UHGV virus genome: UHGV-0162400
Length of the DNA stretch: 36,285 nucleotides
Strand: one strand, 5' to 3'
Source of the DNA: a virus
Below the pieces are notes generated by a model, which searched no databases, was not told the origin of the DNA, and saw only the letters and a list, made by a program, of their open reading frames with translations. The position numbers were made by a program, and so were the translations under genes. Numbering within the stretch: position 1 is the stretch's first letter; each line of letters begins with the position of its first letter. Below are positions 6,380 to 36,285 of this stretch, one piece after another.

Positions 6380-6776
6380 TCAAATTTCTCCTTTCAAATC
6401 CTTCCTCGCCGGTCATCAGCTCGATACACCTCAGTGCAAGCATCAGCTTGACATCGTGATTTCTCGTGCTGTTGATCTCACATCTCAGCTCGTCCGACTT
6501 TCGTATATTCTCCTGGTATCCGACTTCTGCCTCGTGATTTTTCCGTGTTTTGTCTGCGTCCTTGCGATAATCACAAAGATATGCGTCCTTGCGTTCCTTG
6601 CAAAGCCCTTTCGGAAGTTGACCGCTGCGGTAGATACTGCCGAGCTGTGACAGCTTATCGAAGTATTTATACTCAGCAGGCGGAAAGTCGGTATAATCAA
6701 GCGTGTTTTCGTATGCCATACGCTCCAGCTTTTCAAATGTTGCCGGATCATTGAAATTTATCTTCTTCATAATCAT
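6372..6776 (-). CDS. Hypothetical protein
   Basis: 134-aa ORF overlapping the next gene. Confidence 0.7.
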   Translation of the reverse strand: MIMKKINFNDPATFEKLERMAYENTLDYTDFPPAEYKYFDKLSQLGSIYRSGQLPKGLCKERKDAYLCDYRKDADKTRKNHEAEVGYQENIRKSDELRCEINSTRNHDVKLMLALRCIELMTGEEGFERRNLNE

Positions 6777-6777
6777 C

Positions 6778-6891
6778 GGTGTAAGGTTGTGCAGGGTTTT
6801 GCCCGTTTTCCAATACCTTTTATATATTTATTTTTTCATTTTCCGTATGAAAGGTTAGAAAAACCCTTAAACCCTTCACCACCCTTCACTC
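6778..6891. other. Putative replication origin
   Basis: Non-coding AT-rich core flanked by ACCCTT(C/A)A repeats on the right and GTAAGGTT/GCAGGGTT in inverted orientation on the left; directly downstream of the primase-helicase. Confidence 0.55.
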
Positions 6892-6896
6892 TCCTT

Positions 6897-16011: not shown

Positions 16012-16839
16012 TTAATCTGCATCTACATCAATCCCGGTGATCTCTTTGAAAATAGCCTTGTCGAAGTTCGGGATTGCTGTGATAATTGCCTTTTGACAGT
16101 CAGAAAGATTACGCCACCAAAGAACGGTACATTCGGAATTATCCAGTTTTTTCAGATAACCGTCCGTAGTTTCAGCTTCTGGGTGTTCTGCCTTTTCTTC
16201 ATCTGTCATATTGGAATACTGAACCCACTGTACTACATTGTCCGATATCCGCTCAATCAGGCAACAAGCTTCACTATTCAACCAATCACGATATGTCCAG
16301 CTTGACGGCTTATTGAACAGGTAAATTTTCGGGCTTGTGGTGTTAAAACAACCATTAGAAAAGCTGCACTTGTTCCAATCGCCGCTGTTCCAATCGCCGC
16401 TGTTGCAATTGCCACTGTTGCAATTGCCGCTGTTGTGATTGCCGCTGTTGCAATTGCCGCTGTTCCAATTGCCGCTGTTGCGATTGCCGCTGTTGCGATT
16501 GCCACTGTTGCAACGTCCGGTGCAACCTTTCCCGGTGTTTACAAGGCCAAGCAATTCAGACCACGGGATTTCACGAACTACTTCAAGTTTATTCGTAGCG
16601 CACTTATCGCCTTCTTCTGAAACTTCGCCGTAAGCTATGACTTCTGCAACCTTGTTATTCTGGTCGAATAAATAATAATTGAAGCAGTCAGCCGCCTTTT
16701 TGCAGAAGTGCATCCCGCGCCTGCACTGGATTGGGGTAACATCTTCTTCAAATTTGCCAGGGCAAGTGTACTGCTTGCCTCTGCACGTCCAATCAGAATT
16801 GAACACCTTGTACCCTTTAACAACTTCTGTTTTGCTCAT
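16012..16839 (-). CDS. Pentapeptide-repeat (SGNxN) phage protein
   Basis: GYKVFNSDWTCRG...GMHFC N-terminal domain; SGN(R/C/W/H)N repeats; PNFDKAIFKEITGI C-terminus. Confidence 0.85.
   Translation of the reverse strand: MSKTEVVKGYKVFNSDWTCRGKQYTCPGKFEEDVTPIQCRRGMHFCKKAADCFNYYLFDQNNKVAEVIAYGEVSEEGDKCATNKLEVVREIPWSELLGLVNTGKGCTGRCNSGNRNSGNRNSGNWNSGNCNSGNHNSGNCNSGNCNSGDWNSGDWNKCSFSNGCFNTTSPKIYLFNKPSSWTYRDWLNSEACCLIERISDNVVQWVQYSNMTDEEKAEHPEAETTDGYLKKLDNSECTVLWWRNLSDCQKAIITAIPNFDKAIFKEITGIDVDAD
16371..16513. repeat. About 9 tandem 15-bp coding repeats
   Basis: gccgctgtt(g/c)(c/t)(a/g)at(t/c)-type units encoding NSGxx. Confidence 0.9.
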
Positions 16840-18229: not shown

Positions 18230-18270
18230 TTAATATGCTATAATTCTTATAATGAAATGAGGTGAACAAC

Positions 18271-18933
18271 ATGGCAGATGTGAATGAAATTGGTAAAAGA
18301 ATCAAACTATGCCGTGAGAAAAACAAACTGACACAAGGGGAACTCGGAGAACGTTTAGGATTAAATAAATCAACGATACAGAGATACGAAACAGGACAGG
18401 TAGCAAAAATAAAATTGCCGATACTTGAGTCAATAGCGTGTGAGCTTAATGTAAGTGCGGCATACCTTGCGCTTAAAACAGATAATCCGGAGCTCACATC
18501 ACGCTCTATTGAATCAAATGCAACTATTCTTCCACAGGATAAAATCAGAATGATTCCTGTTTACGAGAGTGTATCAGCGGGCTTCGGTGCCTATGCCGAT
18601 AATTACATTCTTGAGTATATGCCGTTGTTTATTGCCAGTGACGAAGAAGCGAAAAACACGATGTGTATAAAGGTACAAGGCAACAGTATGTACCCAAAAA
18701 TTGAAGAAGGCGATTCTATTCAGGTGCTAAAACAAGATTGGTGTGATTCCGGACAGGTGGCAGTGGTTCTGATTGACGGTGAGGATTCGGTTGTTAAAAA
18801 AATAGAATATGATAAAAACAGCATTACTCTGCTGTCATTCAATCCCGAATATGCACCAAGAATTTTTAAAGGTGCTGAACGAGACAGGTTAAGAATACTT
18901 GGAATTGTGAGAAAAGTAATAAAAGACATATAA
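18271..18933 (+). CDS. cI: CI-like repressor (XRE HTH plus S24 autopeptidase)
   Basis: LTQGELGERLGLNKSTIQRYETG; AG cleavage site VSAGFG; GNSMYP catalytic Ser; VVKK catalytic Lys. Confidence 0.93.
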   Translation: MADVNEIGKRIKLCREKNKLTQGELGERLGLNKSTIQRYETGQVAKIKLPILESIACELNVSAAYLALKTDNPELTSRSIESNATILPQDKIRMIPVYESVSAGFGAYADNYILEYMPLFIASDEEAKNTMCIKVQGNSMYPKIEEGDSIQVLKQDWCDSGQVAVVLIDGEDSVVKKIEYDKNSITLLSFNPEYAPRIFKGAERDRLRILGIVRKVIKDI

Positions 18934-18992: not shown

Positions 18993-20411
18993 ATGGACAA
19001 TCTTTTAAAAGCATTGATAGTAGGAGCAGAAACAGCAATAGAAAATGTTAAGCTTAATATACAGCTTGACAATGGAGTATCTTGTACTATAGAATCAATT
19101 GATTCTGCAATACGGTACGTTGAACCGCTCCTTGAGTACGAAAAGCAAGGCATTAAAACCACTACTCCGCCACCGTCAGAATTGATTGCATTTTTAGAAC
19201 AGAAGCGTTATGAAATCCAGGATCCTGATTATTTATACGATAATGTCAAATTTGCACAAGGCGTAAGCTCGTTTGACAAGGAATATTTAGATGATACTGA
19301 AAGCGAATTGACCGAAGTCATTGAGAAATGCAAGACAAGCAACAACGCACACGACAAACTTGCTTTGGCTATCATATATAAAAATCTCGGAGAAAACCAC
19401 AGCAAAGCCGCAGAATTATTAAAATCATACATAGACGGTAATTACAGCAATCCTTTTTATACAAAAATGCAAATGCTCTTTATGCTTGCGGAATTATACA
19501 AAAACGGTAGTAATCCTGCTGAGGCAATCAACACTTATACCAGACTTCTTAAAATTGCCCCTGCTAACGCCTCGATATACATTGAACTGATTGAAACACT
19601 AAATGAAATAGGCAGATATGACCTTGCCGCAAAAGCCCTTATGGCAACTAAAAACACGACGTATTATAAGGAATCTGCACCTTTCAAATATATGATTGAC
19701 AACATTATGACAAAGCATTGTCTGCTTTGTAAAACCGAAAAAGTACGCAACGAATTTTTAGTATGTGACAGCTGTAAAGCAAAATTTGATTTATCCACAG
19801 ATGAAAGTGACTTTATTGAAAATTTCCTACAAAACTCTTATACAAAGGTTGGTGCAAAAGAGCGCTTGATTTATATGAGCAGTTCTTCTGAATGCGTCTT
19901 AGGCAACTGTAGGCGATTTCTTAACAATTTCATTTTAAGTGTTTATAATAACTCATGTGAGCCGTTAGACATTTTAGCCGTTGCTACTACATACGCTCGT
20001 ATGTATGCGGCAGAGCGCCCATTGGCTATAAAGTATTGGGAGTTATTTTTAGAATCCCCTACAGATTTGCCACCGATAACTAACCGCATTGGTGCAGTGT
20101 TATATTCCAAGTGGCATCTCTACTCAACTTTTGCCAATATATACGAAGCTGAGTACCAATTTGACAAAGCAATACAAATGCTTAAAAAGTGTATCGAAGT
20201 AGACGCAGGGACAAATTCAAGTGACTATATAAGAATCGGTGACGTTTATGTAAAAATTGATACAAAATCCGCAGAAGAATATTATCTAAAAACAATTGAA
20301 GATGAAAATGTGACAGAGGATGTCCGTAACAGATGTAAAGCCGCATTAGCCGCTGTGCGTGAAAAAATACAAAGAGGCTATGTTTATAGGCCAAGAAAAG
20401 CAAAACAATAA
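18993..20411 (+). CDS. TPR-repeat protein with central zinc ribbon, function unknown
   Basis: Two TPR-like blocks separated by CLLC-x11-CDSC; low GC; between cI and int. Confidence 0.75.
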   Translation: MDNLLKALIVGAETAIENVKLNIQLDNGVSCTIESIDSAIRYVEPLLEYEKQGIKTTTPPPSELIAFLEQKRYEIQDPDYLYDNVKFAQGVSSFDKEYLDDTESELTEVIEKCKTSNNAHDKLALAIIYKNLGENHSKAAELLKSYIDGNYSNPFYTKMQMLFMLAELYKNGSNPAEAINTYTRLLKIAPANASIYIELIETLNEIGRYDLAAKALMATKNTTYYKESAPFKYMIDNIMTKHCLLCKTEKVRNEFLVCDSCKAKFDLSTDESDFIENFLQNSYTKVGAKERLIYMSSSSECVLGNCRRFLNNFILSVYNNSCEPLDILAVATTYARMYAAERPLAIKYWELFLESPTDLPPITNRIGAVLYSKWHLYSTFANIYEAEYQFDKAIQMLKKCIEVDAGTNSSDYIRIGDVYVKIDTKSAEEYYLKTIEDENVTEDVRNRCKAALAAVREKIQRGYVYRPRKAKQ

Positions 20412-20448
20412 ATTACCGCTAAGGTAGCATTTCACGACCTTGGCGATG

Positions 20449-20480
20449 GTCACCCTCTACATGAGGGCGTGGATTGAAAT
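20449..20480 (+). CRISPR. Solitary type I-C-like CRISPR repeat (no array, no cas genes)
   Basis: GTCACCCTCTACATGAGGGCGTGGATTGAAAT: 32 bp, GTC start, CCCTC/GAGGG hairpin, GCGTGGATTGAAAT 3' end. Confidence 0.85.
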
Positions 20481-20502
20481 AAATAAATTAGGAGGTGCAA
20501 AA

Positions 20503-21627
20503 ATGCCCGGAAAGGTAACTTATACAAAGCGAAAAGACGGCAGATATCAGGCAAAAATGTACTGTGGCACTGAAAACGGAGTGCCGAAATACAAGTATGT
20601 TTATGCTGCTACCGAGAGGGAAATGAAAGCAAAGTTGTCCGAAAAAACAAAGCTCGTAAACCGTGGTATAGACATCACCTCGGAGCGTGAAACTTTCGGT
20701 GACTGGCTCGAAATGTATCTTATCACAAAGCAGTCTTCGGTAAGTGACAAATGGTACCGTGCCATACGGACAAATGCAAAAATTTTAGAACCGTTGAAAG
20801 ATACGAAGTTATCAGTCATCAAGCAGTATATGCTGACTGAAATACTGTTTGATATGGCAAACAAGGGATATTCCGAGAAGACTATGCAGAGCGTTAAAGG
20901 AATCGCCCAGGGCGTACTTGAACTTGCCGCCGACAACAGAGCTATCGACCACAATTTCTTTAAGAATGTAGCAATACCTAAAGCAAAGCAAGAGCCTGAA
21001 CACAGGAGAGCTCTGACAAGCGAGGAACAAGCCTGGATTCGAGATACACCGCACAGAGCCCAGACCGCCGCAATGATCATGATGTATGCGGGATTGCGCA
21101 GAGGAGAACTCATAGCATTGCAATGGACCGATATAAATCTTGATGAAGCGACAATCCGGGTAAACAAATCTGTTGAGCAAGTCAGTGGTTCGGGGCTTGT
21201 AATAAAAAAAGGCGGTAAAACAGACGCCGCAACAAGAACTGTCTGCATTCCTCAGATTTTAGTAAGCTACCTGCGACAAGTTCCCCACACATCATTTTTT
21301 GTAGTCACGAATGCTAAGGGTAAAATGCACTCGGATAAAAGCTGGTATCGTATGTGGGAAAGTTACATCAAGTGCTTATCTGAAAAATACGGTACACATA
21401 AGCCAGGAACGGATCATAAAGTTATCCCACCTATAACCGCCCATTGGTTACGCCACACCTTCATCACGTTAATGTATCTCGCCGGCGTTGACATAGTAAC
21501 CGCAAAGGAGCAGGCAGGACATAAAGACATTCAGACCACCCTTTCAATATACACCCATCTGTCAGAAAAATATAAGAAAAAGAACCTCAAAATGTTGGAC
21601 GATTATATACAGATTGAAACATCTTGA
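20503..21627 (+). CDS. int: Tyrosine integrase
   Basis: N-terminal arm-binding RKDGRYQ; GLRRGE, HWLRH, GH and IYTH catalytic motifs; GGAGGT RBS at 20491-96. Confidence 0.95.
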   Translation: MPGKVTYTKRKDGRYQAKMYCGTENGVPKYKYVYAATEREMKAKLSEKTKLVNRGIDITSERETFGDWLEMYLITKQSSVSDKWYRAIRTNAKILEPLKDTKLSVIKQYMLTEILFDMANKGYSEKTMQSVKGIAQGVLELAADNRAIDHNFFKNVAIPKAKQEPEHRRALTSEEQAWIRDTPHRAQTAAMIMMYAGLRRGELIALQWTDINLDEATIRVNKSVEQVSGSGLVIKKGGKTDAATRTVCIPQILVSYLRQVPHTSFFVVTNAKGKMHSDKSWYRMWESYIKCLSEKYGTHKPGTDHKVIPPITAHWLRHTFITLMYLAGVDIVTAKEQAGHKDIQTTLSIYTHLSEKYKKKNLKMLDDYIQIETS

Positions 21628-21635
21628 TACAAGCA

Positions 21636-21859
21636 TAGGGTGTCAAATAGGGTGTCAAAGTGCTTACAAATGGCTCTATTAAGCCATTTTACTACAGGTT
21701 CAAGTCCTGTTACCCGTACCAACTGCAATATTTGTAAAACGCTCGATATTTGGCTCAACCAAGCCATTTATCGAGCGTTTTTGTTTTCTTGAAATGTGTG
21801 TGATTTGGTACATTTTCGGGCAGTTTGACACCATAATAGGGTGTCAAATCGGTGTCAAG
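21636..21859. mobile_element. attP: tRNA 3'-end core flanked by arm-type repeats
   Basis: TAGGGTGTCAAA x2 (21636-59); core ACAGGTTCAAGTCCTGTTACCCGTACCA (21694-21721); TTTGACACC (21824-32); TAGGGTGTCAAA (21837-48); TCGGTGTCAAG (21849-59). Confidence 0.85.
21736..21790 (+). terminator. Terminator-like hairpin after the tRNA fragment
   Basis: AAAACGCTCGATA...TATCGAGCGTTTT followed by a T-rich tail. Confidence 0.7.
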
Positions 21860-32141: not shown

Positions 32142-32534
32142 TTAATTACTCCTTTCGTAATAAACCGTCACATCAATAACGTACTCGCAGATACCTCTTT
32201 CATCTCTGCCTGCGTTATGCGCCTCACTGCAACTCAAAAAGCCGACCGTGTGCCCCCCGGCAGTATAGCCGTGTACATCGGTCAGCTTATCAAGTATTTC
32301 GTTTGCCGCACTCTCGGCTGTTGTCGGATTGTCCGTCCAGTGTATCAGTACGCTGATGTGCTTTTCAAGTGTTTTCGTGCAAGGCTTACCGCCTATGCTG
32401 ATTTTCTTAGGATAGGTGTTTTTTGACGCATACACGCCGATACACTTATCCTGATTTGCGTTTATACAGCCTGCGTATACATTCTCTATGCCGAGAACAT
32501 CAGCAAGCATATCGGCTGCTTCAAGTAACGTCAT
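32142..32534 (-). CDS. Putative tail terminator (A118 'minor capsid'-like)
   Basis: Position; GRDERGICEYVI C-terminus. Confidence 0.7.
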   Translation of the reverse strand: MTLLEAADMLADVLGIENVYAGCINANQDKCIGVYASKNTYPKKISIGGKPCTKTLEKHISVLIHWTDNPTTAESAANEILDKLTDVHGYTAGGHTVGFLSCSEAHNAGRDERGICEYVIDVTVYYERSN

Positions 32535-32896
32535 ACGCCTGTTCTCCTCTTGAAATCATATATAAACGCATCACGGGCAAGGTCTTTCTTTTCCCCGCTT
32601 ACATAAGGTTCAAACCACCCTGCCCCTGCGTTTGCGTTCTTGCCCTGCTGGAAGTGATATTCAGGGTGATAATACAGCCGCCTTGCCTGAGGAGAACCGG
32701 TGACTATAGTTGTTCCATTCTGAGTTGTTGCAACGAAAGTCTGATTATTCTGCATATCGCCCGTGTCAAACGGCATTGTCTGTGAGCTTACAAGGTCGGT
32801 ATGTACCTGTTCCATTGCTACCTCAGCACTTTTTAACGCCGCTGCTTCCAGATTTGCTATAGCAGCCTTGTCGAGCTTTACGGTTACTTTTATCAC
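32531..32896 (-). CDS. Neck/tail-completion protein
   Basis: MPFDTGDMQ, PQARRLYY, AGAGWFE. Confidence 0.75.
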   Translation of the reverse strand: MIKVTVKLDKAAIANLEAAALKSAEVAMEQVHTDLVSSQTMPFDTGDMQNNQTFVATTQNGTTIVTGSPQARRLYYHPEYHFQQGKNANAGAGWFEPYVSGEKKDLARDAFIYDFKRRTGV

Positions 32897-35588: not shown

Positions 35589-35727
35589 ATGAGTTCATTT
35601 TTTCCTCCCAGTCTTTTCGGGTTTCTTCATCCCAGTCATCTTCTCCAGAATTTATAGCCTTAATCAAATCGGATTTAGCTTTTTCAATTAATTCTCTGGG
35701 AATACGTACATTCGCATTACCTTTCAT
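35587..35727 (-). CDS. 46-aa candidate immunity protein (absent from the ORF track)
   Basis: GAGGTG RBS; ATGA overlap with the ART stop; MKGNANVRIPRELIEKAKSDLIKAINSGEDDWDEETRKDWEEKMNS. Confidence 0.7.
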   Translation of the reverse strand: MKGNANVRIPRELIEKAKSDLIKAINSGEDDWDEETRKDWEEKMNS

Positions 35728-36285
35728 ATTATCACCTCTAAAGTTATAGTTGTCCCATCAACATCCAAAATGCTATATTTAAGATTTTTATCGAATAAAA
35801 ACTCTCTCTGATTTGGATATTTGCTCAATAATTCAATATACGCACCCTTGCTTCCTTTCTTAGCAAATATAATTAAATTATAATTACCGCTTATCGCACC
35901 TGATTTAGTTACTGCTGAACTAACAAACTGCTTAGGCTCATATATATCGCCAACTTTCATTCCTTCCACAGGATTGTAATTGACAGAACGGTAACAGATA
36001 ATGTCGTGCTTTAACTCAAACTTCGCTATCGCACCCGATATAACATCAGAATAATATTTCAAAGTGTCATCTTCGGGAATATCCCCACGAAGCATTGAAT
36101 TAAGTCTTGCATAGAACTTATCGTCTTTGGGATCTCCGCTGTTCTTCGTGTACTTCTTGATTGCTCTGACTTCTTCTGAGGACAGACGGTTAATCCATTC
36201 CTTTGAATCTTCACGCAATACAGGGACAACAGTATCTGCCGACAATGGCTCGAAAACTGTTTCTTCCTCTATTATATCACTTTCA
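35724..36285 (-). CDS. ADP-ribosyltransferase (VIP2/C3-like) domain, C-terminal part of the minor capsid fusion
   Basis: AIKKYT, LNSMLRG, CYRS (catalytic R), FVSSA (STS-like), GAYI...NQREFL (QxE); frame open to the window end. Confidence 0.88.
   Translation of the reverse strand, partial: ESDIIEEETVFEPLSADTVVPVLREDSKEWINRLSSEEVRAIKKYTKNSGDPKDDKFYARLNSMLRGDIPEDDTLKYYSDVISGAIAKFELKHDIICYRSVNYNPVEGMKVGDIYEPKQFVSSAVTKSGAISGNYNLIIFAKKGSKGAYIELLSKYPNQREFLFDKNLKYSILDVDGTTITLEVII

Follow-up and report, generated by a model that had tools for sequence, protein, structure and literature searches.

The window analysed here, the whole 36,285-nt virus genome UHGV-0162400, carries a single type I-C CRISPR repeat upstream of its integrase gene (see table). 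We consider it probable, at roughly 0.7, that this lone repeat is the spacerless allele of a mini-array slot with which related phages turn type I-C systems of their hosts against one another, and that the spacer was likely lost by recombination between two repeats. In its present state, the repeat likely guides nothing. In sister phages, the same slot with the same flanks holds a first repeat, a spacer and a second repeat (R1-spacer-R2), with spacer A in 16 contigs, spacer B in 7 records and spacer D in 2 records. Viral mini-arrays have been described previously (Faure 2019, Medvedeva 2019, as covered in PMC8616872, PMC11656645 and PMC7099407): they have no cas genes, contain one spacer between host-like repeats, and their spacers match related viruses rather than the carrier.

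Table. Features of the window that are relevant to the lone repeat (position 1 is the first nucleotide of the window).
Feature	Position	Strand	Basis
Protospacer, 0 mismatches, TTC PAM, for a spacer of the G031 type I-C array	16030..16062	-	array-spacer search
cI-like repressor, first gene of the rightward lysogeny module	18262..18933	+	PHROGs phrog_4, E 1e-42
TPR-containing accessory gene, 472 aa	18993..20411	+	Pfam TPR matches
Hairpin, 29 nt, 9-bp arms	20417..20445	+	fold and comparison with sister phages
Solitary type I-C repeat	20449..20480	+	matches host-genus arrays, R1 of MT836969.1, and L004
Predicted 11-nt 5' handle, given a Cas5c cut after G21	20470..20480	+	cut position from PMC8524198
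Integrase RBS, GGAGGT	20491..20496	+	position
Tyrosine integrase	20503..21627	+	phrog_1, PF00589
attP core	21695..21721	+	27/27 identity with the 3' end of tRNA-Leu(tag) of G001
Minor head protein gene, allele A	32531..32896	-	phrog_556
TTC PAM (32637-32639) and protospacer (32640-32673) for spacer A of sister phages	32637..32673	+	spacer match

By PHROGs annotation, the window is the genome of a temperate tailed phage with head, tail, replication, lysis and lysogeny modules. In the lysogeny module, the cI gene is followed by the TPR gene, a 91-nt gap which contains the repeat, and the tyrosine integrase gene. The nearest genome, G001, which contains a sister prophage of the window phage, was used together with its genus as a proxy for the host. 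Adjoining the head genes, an ORF on the minus strand (35724-36245) contains a Pfam ADP-ribosyltransferase domain (ADPrib_exo_Tox) and may represent the C-terminal part of a minor head protein of the MuF type that is split by the ends of the window.

The original prediction, made from the letters of the window alone, described a solitary I-C repeat without a second copy, with an A4 mismatch in its stem, without any cas gene in the window, and located 10 nt before the integrase RBS and 22 nt before the ATG. All of these points were reproduced when position, solitude, stem and geometry were recomputed. The 32-mer was found once in the window even when up to 3 mismatches were allowed, none of 100 shuffles contained a match, and its tail GTGGATTGAAA also occurs only at the repeat. 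PHROGs scans of 42 ORFs and Pfam scans of 20 window ORFs revealed no cas genes, and an Rfam search gave no match. A contig of run X2, which comes from a study other than that of the possible source run, covers 20100-20900 without a break and with the repeat unchanged; thus, the single copy does not result from assembly collapse. Several further matches (L150, L053, L387 with 2 mismatches, and L395/L396/L400) were taken as chance.

We then compared the repeat with I-C arrays of the host genus, as had been proposed. Arrays with the same repeat tail are present in 6 of 37 genomes of the genus of G001, and one of them (in G019) adjoins a cas3-cas5c-cas8c-cas7-cas4-cas1c-cas2 locus. The window repeat differs from the consensus of this array by three changes (29/32) and agrees at 32/32 positions with the last complete repeat in the G029 array. 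A scan of 185,579 genomes for the exact repeat gave one match, L187, which is labelled uncultured Ruminiclostridium sp. Cas5c was detected in 31 of 108 genomes of the genus (30 above the cut-off) and is absent from G001, the nearest genome and carrier of the sister prophage. Four of the 442 spacers in six arrays of the genus match the window, with 0, 2, 4 and 7 mismatches, and the perfect match is next to a TTC PAM. Judged from these genomes, I-C is the relevant CRISPR type for the window phage at the genus level, which is also the level at which both the host-like repeats and the host effector expected for a mini-array are found. The junction pattern of the phage slot was absent from genus members among 301 genomes of the family.

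A blastn search with 20405-20515 against 50,697 phage records matched 8 records. The window lacks a spacer between two repeats; 25 sister contigs or records have one in the homologous slot. In spacer-A carriers (4 viral contigs and 12 of 16 metagenome matches, some of which may be redundant), the order is TPR gene, hairpin, R1, a 34-nt spacer, R2 and the integrase junction. Both sides of this arrangement are recognizable in the window: its TPR gene has 91–92% nucleotide identity to the gene located 5' of the spacer-A mini-array in L071/L090/L114/L130/L198 (blastn), and the junction AAATAAATTAGGAGGTG at its integrase RBS is the same as the sequence 3' of the second repeat in array-bearing sisters.

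As an alternative, the original prediction proposed a degenerate mini-array aimed at a competing element, with the ~37 nt upstream of the repeat as its spacer. The former part is supported by the sister arrays, whose spacers match sister phages, but the latter was rejected: the upstream 37 nt contain the 29-nt hairpin, which precedes R1 in array-bearing sisters and is also present in sisters without a repeat, and the upstream part of the query matched this hairpin only in the search against phages. The downstream 34 nt, also considered as a guide, match integrase leaders only, have no PAM, and were rejected as well. No close second copy of the hairpin exists in the window (best alternative, 16 mismatches); it is possibly a terminator or a leader element. 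Among sisters, it occurs in both loop orientations, implying inversion via the 9-bp arms. In L210/L215/L217/L218, a promoter-like stretch and two small ORFs take the place of the repeat behind the hairpin; these ORFs resemble what we take to be a HicAB pair.

The match of spacer A to the window lies inside the minor head gene, behind TTC. Mismatches are at positions 6 and 12 in 2 contigs, at 6, 12 and 30 in 9, and at 6, 12, 25 and 30 in 5, compared with 11 mismatches for the best of 300 shuffles. In Class 1 complexes, the guide base at every sixth position is reported to be flipped out (PMC11127173). The canonical PAM of type I-C is TTC, and in one such system TTT and TTA work as well (PMC5602111). 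Considering the flipped sixth bases and the TTC flank, most spacer-A variants should target the window. Because mismatch positions 6, 12 and 30 are third codon positions and L363 matches the spacer with 1 mismatch, these mismatches are no sign of selection.

The targeted segment differs between otherwise closely related phages. G064, a 94% complete genome that carries spacer A, shares 96% identity with the window across the structural genes apart from 32543-32796, the segment matched by spacer A, where it carries the other allele. This alternative form of the head gene has 37–40% amino acid identity to allele A within structural regions that are 95–97% identical at the nucleotide level. Allele A was found in the window, G072, G085 and the G001 prophage, and the alternative allele in G064, G002, G068, G069 and G081. 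The head gene is covered by only one spacer-A carrier (G064) and by neither of the spacer-D records, and none of 9 further head-gene records, all of which are less than 90% complete, has the repeat tail. In metagenomic runs, 32543-32853 of this gene appears as a hypervariable cassette: X2, X3, X4 and X7 show two different replacement junctions, X2 contains two forms of the head gene, and X4 has changes at the spacer-A PAM and at protospacer position 3.

Spacer D corresponds to the alternative allele. In MT836969.1, the slot contains the exact repeat of the window as R1, the 34-nt spacer D, a different R2 and the junction of the window; in L392, the spacer has one change, and the consensus G at position 4 is the sole difference of the repeat from that of the window. 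Spacer D matches the alternative head allele with 2 mismatches in G064 and four more records and with 3 in one, always next to TTA, a weaker PAM. It has 8 mismatches to four other phages with the alternative allele, its best match in the window has 15, and the best of 200 shuffles had 11. The upstream accessory genes of MT836969.1 and L392 have 94–98% identity to the one in the allele-A phages G072 and G085.

The relationship between these records and the window suggests how the slot became empty. The single repeat of L004 is the same as that of the window. L004 and MT836969.1 agree completely over 127 nt up to the end of R1, after which L004 continues with the sequence directly behind R2, with the spacer and R2 missing. 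Since spacer D is found behind both G4 and A4 repeats, the change to A4 likely took place in a spacer-bearing slot, an order that speaks for loss rather than gain; from this pattern, the A4 spacerless allele most simply, and likely, arose by loss. A4 is also present inside the G029 array and could be a recurrent change. Spacer loss through recombination between repeats has been predicted (PMC7099407). The left flank of the window is that of spacer-A carriers, and its right side (the repeat and its flank) is 98.9% identical to L004 over 733 nt, so that the two parts join at the repeat. L004 and runs X2 and X3 contain the same spacerless allele without any change.

It might be argued that such a repeat is kept as an RNA anti-CRISPR, whatever its origin, with a transcript of the lysogeny operon tying up Cas5c/Cas7 and shielding the prophage. 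The window repeat has the features of a solitary repeat unit (SRU): it is intergenic, single, more than 90% identical to repeats of the host genus, and without cas genes. The known example RacrIC1 acts from a bicistronic mRNA (PMC10651486). The phage is targeted by spacers of the host genus and by spacer A of its sisters, so inhibition would pay, and the unchanged recurrence of the allele would suit a maintained element. Racrs typically, though not always, have their own promoter or are co-transcribed with an acr gene. The ORF scans described above gave no Acr-family match, and no promoter-like site lies directly 5' of the repeat; the nearest one (20257-20285, scoring 10/12) is inside the TPR gene, and the total of 15 such sites is not above chance (12.7 +/- 3.4 in shuffles). 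The repeat stem has 6 of 7 pairs, with A4 opposite C20 unpaired, and although the 3' tail is intact and the sequence also serves as R1 of the spacer-bearing array D, the closing pair C3-G21 has a predicted probability of only 0.10 in context. Cas5c is predicted to cut after G21 and give an 11-nt 5' handle, and mutations at the stem base inhibited the B. halodurans enzyme (PMC8524198); the mismatch at the stem base may lower Cas5c cleavage of the window repeat. Stems in arrays A and B have 7/7 pairs, and other spacerless alleles (L061, L191) have decayed to 3–4 of 7. An initial idea that stems decay only in spacerless alleles was weakened by the A4 repeat being R1 of array D. Taken together, we consider maintenance as an RNA anti-CRISPR unlikely. 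Under the emptied-slot explanation, Cascade titration by the present repeat, like Cas5c cutting of the integrase leader, would be a side effect.

Spacer B (35 nt) corresponds to a different gene. It has a match without mismatches, next to TTT, in the Rha gene of G071, and the slot of G071 contains a single repeat. In the stretches compared, this Rha protein had no match in spacer-B carriers G068, G069 and G070 (100, 100 and 88% complete, respectively). Several loci (L260 at 2631-2800, and also L231, L264 and L200) have palindromes of ~20 nt beside the repeat, which resemble a variable palindromic segment of the Rha gene and are possibly another spacer or operator decoys. The first 31 nt after R2 match the L200 Rha gene at 29/31, and copies of window 6776-6893 then follow.

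The structure of the sister arrays also bears on the possibility that the repeat is no remnant but an empty docking site, where spacer-repeat units are gained by recombination with host arrays and which happens to be unloaded in the window. In none of the three arrays (A, B and D) are R1 and R2 the same, contrary to what a fresh Cas1-Cas2 duplication would give, and over 31 nt the R2 of array B does not differ from the host consensus of G019. At 1807-2530 of L258 (G067), a phage-type cI-hairpin-repeat-spacer B segment is joined to an 11-repeat host-like array, in which spacer B continues into nine more spacers and then non-phage-like genes; the second spacer of L258 matches G077 with 4 mismatches and a TTT flank. 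This record reflects either recombination with a host array or chimeric assembly. Moreover, the window repeat is the same as a host terminal repeat, its sole exact match in the large genome scan, and a recombinational route has been proposed (PMC7099407). However, L258 is one linear record that is perhaps chimeric across the 31-nt repeat, its spacers and spacer A are absent from the G019 and G029 arrays, and the A4/G4 pattern favours loss for the window allele. As a separate explanation, a docking site appears quite improbable to us, and it can be compatible with an emptied slot. A further record deposited as a phage, L389 (MT836912.1), contains at 125-290 a three-repeat array with a G019-like trailer, whose second spacer has a protospacer with 1 mismatch, next to a TTC PAM, in sister phage G070.

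In the sister arrays, the spacers match related viruses and, in the records searched, not their carrier, with TTC (A), TTT (B) or TTA (D) as the flanking PAM. Neither spacer A nor spacer B was found together with its own target in any of 25 records, many of which are fragments. As only G064 among the A carriers, and no D record, covers the head gene, no direct mutually targeting pair is seen among the records. In addition, most phages of both alleles have no spacer, and the exclusion pattern therefore carries little statistical weight: it is one-way and statistically weak. The window has a spacer-A target with a TTC PAM, so it presumably could not retain spacer A in a host with a type I-C system. 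The stronger proposal that an empty slot implies presence of the target was contradicted by run X3, which has a spacerless slot yet only the replaced (alternative-type) segment of the head gene; an empty slot can thus be explained without self-targeting.

Based on these observations, the emptied-slot explanation may be described as follows. The slot lies between the accessory genes of the lysogeny module and the integrase, and its alleles are empty, decayed, absent or loaded. When loaded, it would be transcribed with the lysogeny operon, host Cas5c would cut the transcript after G21 to leave the handle, and the guide would be loaded into host Cascade-Cas3. An incoming or co-resident sister with the other head-gene allele, or with the Rha gene, would then be destroyed. 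The spacer could be lost by crossover between the repeats or in module exchange: the repeat appears to serve as a swap junction for upstream accessory modules and downstream integrases, and a crossover there would drop the spacer. A broader and rather tentative hypothesis, which we find possible but less likely than not, is that the repeat is a reloadable guide port. Units would be gained by recombination with host arrays or among sisters and dropped at module swaps, sisters would attack the head allele that they lack, and CRISPR warfare within one phage species would keep the two-allele polymorphism. Many predicted Racrs might then be empty ports.

The proximity of the repeat to the integrase had led to a different prediction, namely that host Cas5c/Cascade cuts or occludes the integrase leader and thereby ties integration and excision to the CRISPR state of the host. 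The geometry is as described, and single I-C-like repeats were also observed before serine integrases in unrelated phages (L064, L069 and, more degenerate, L094). The proposed check for conserved linkage, however, was negative. Of 48 viral loci with a related integrase, 4 have 99–100% identity, and the repeat is present in only one of these (L004), a plain GC hairpin taking its place in the other three; the remaining 44 loci (one without upstream DNA) have no repeat tail. A second integrase family is represented by 16 loci at ≥98% identity, 14 with readable upstream DNA, among which 4 contain an array and 3 a single, decayed repeat; the other 7 have none. A third integrase is located 3' of the slot in L198 and L392. 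The repeat is thus found before three different tyrosine integrases, or before non-integrase DNA, at 2, 6 or 10 nt from the RBS, and in array B and L264 the integrase is ~1.2 kb or more downstream. Absence before near-identical integrases, the three integrases and the variable spacing together indicate that the repeat is not tied to the integrase of the window. Furthermore, cleavage would hardly alter the predicted accessibility of the RBS (mean unpaired 0.54 vs. 0.59), and PAM-adjacent seed matches of the downstream 34 nt, both in the window and in five cas loci (best 8–10 nt in the latter), did not exceed those of shuffled sequences. The lysogeny operon may simply be where a prophage would express such cargo. 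Coupling of integration to the CRISPR state of the host therefore seems very improbable.

A general search for I-C repeats ahead of integrases gave 92 RBS-pattern matches, 29 of which passed a stem filter and fell into 22 downstream groups, with true arrays and chance matches in coding DNA among them; 4 of the 22 groups, from two lineages, are integrases. A binomial test for integrase enrichment, based on a hand count of 3/13, was discarded for its assumed baselines and biased pattern. In other unrelated phages, single I-C-like repeats precede other genes downstream of cI-like genes (L097, L109) or a gene with an Acb2/Tad1 domain (L107).

We also considered the repeat as an attachment site for integration into CRISPR arrays, as in phage AP1.1. 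It adjoins the integrase, and in one sister record a repeat forms the junction with a host-like array. Nevertheless, the predicted attP core corresponds to the 3' end of tRNA-Leu, downstream of the integrase and outside the repeat, so the repeat is not the predicted att site of the window phage, and it accompanies three different integrases. We give this explanation almost no credence.

If the emptied-slot explanation is correct, solitary repeats (Racr candidates) and mini-arrays, which are usually treated as separate classes, are linked as alleles of one locus, and this cautions against calling a Racr from sequence alone. Mini-arrays are already known; in the literature searched, whose coverage stops short of subscription papers and bioRxiv supplements (e.g., the Cracr tables), we found no repeat in an integrase leader, no SRU as the empty allele of a mini-array, and no spacers against both alleles of one gene. 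Here, such spacers occur in phages that are ~96% identical over the structural genes. With spacers, targets, PAMs and host-genus I-C operons all defined, the locus offers a compact bacterial test case for mini-array conflict, experimental validation of which the reviews consulted cite for archaeal viruses only.

Among known systems, the sister slots are most readily compared with viral mini-arrays, as they have no cas genes, one spacer, host-like repeats and spacers against related viruses. They differ in that the window holds an empty allele, that R1 and R2 of the sisters are not the same, and that three spacers swap at one slot within a single phage population, two of them against both alleles of one head gene. 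Like SRUs and RacrIC1 (PMC10651486), the window contains a single intergenic host-like I-C repeat in a temperate phage with a probable polycistronic transcript; as differences, no acr neighbour was found, the stem base has a mismatch, and its direct relatives show that the unit is R1 of a mini-array. That study allows other functions for SRUs; the word integrase is absent from its main text, and neither the window repeat nor the L004 contig identifier was found in the searchable text of its 9 supplementary files. In AP1.1, a phage-borne repeat picks up spacer-repeat units from host arrays (10.1101/2020.10.09.333658), and sister record L258 resembles such a phage-repeat/host-array junction, whereas the attP here is the 3' end of tRNA-Leu, the repeat is upstream of the integrase, and the type is I-C and not II-A. 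Finally, Cracr/CreR elements (10.1101/2024.10.29.618823) are also phage-borne repeat units that rely on type I Cas proteins of the host. The PAM-adjacent seed against a cas or creT promoter that characterizes them was not seen for the sequence downstream of the window repeat at five cas loci (best 8–10 nt, within shuffles), and the spacers of the sister slots, unlike those elements, match phage genes over nearly their full length next to a PAM.
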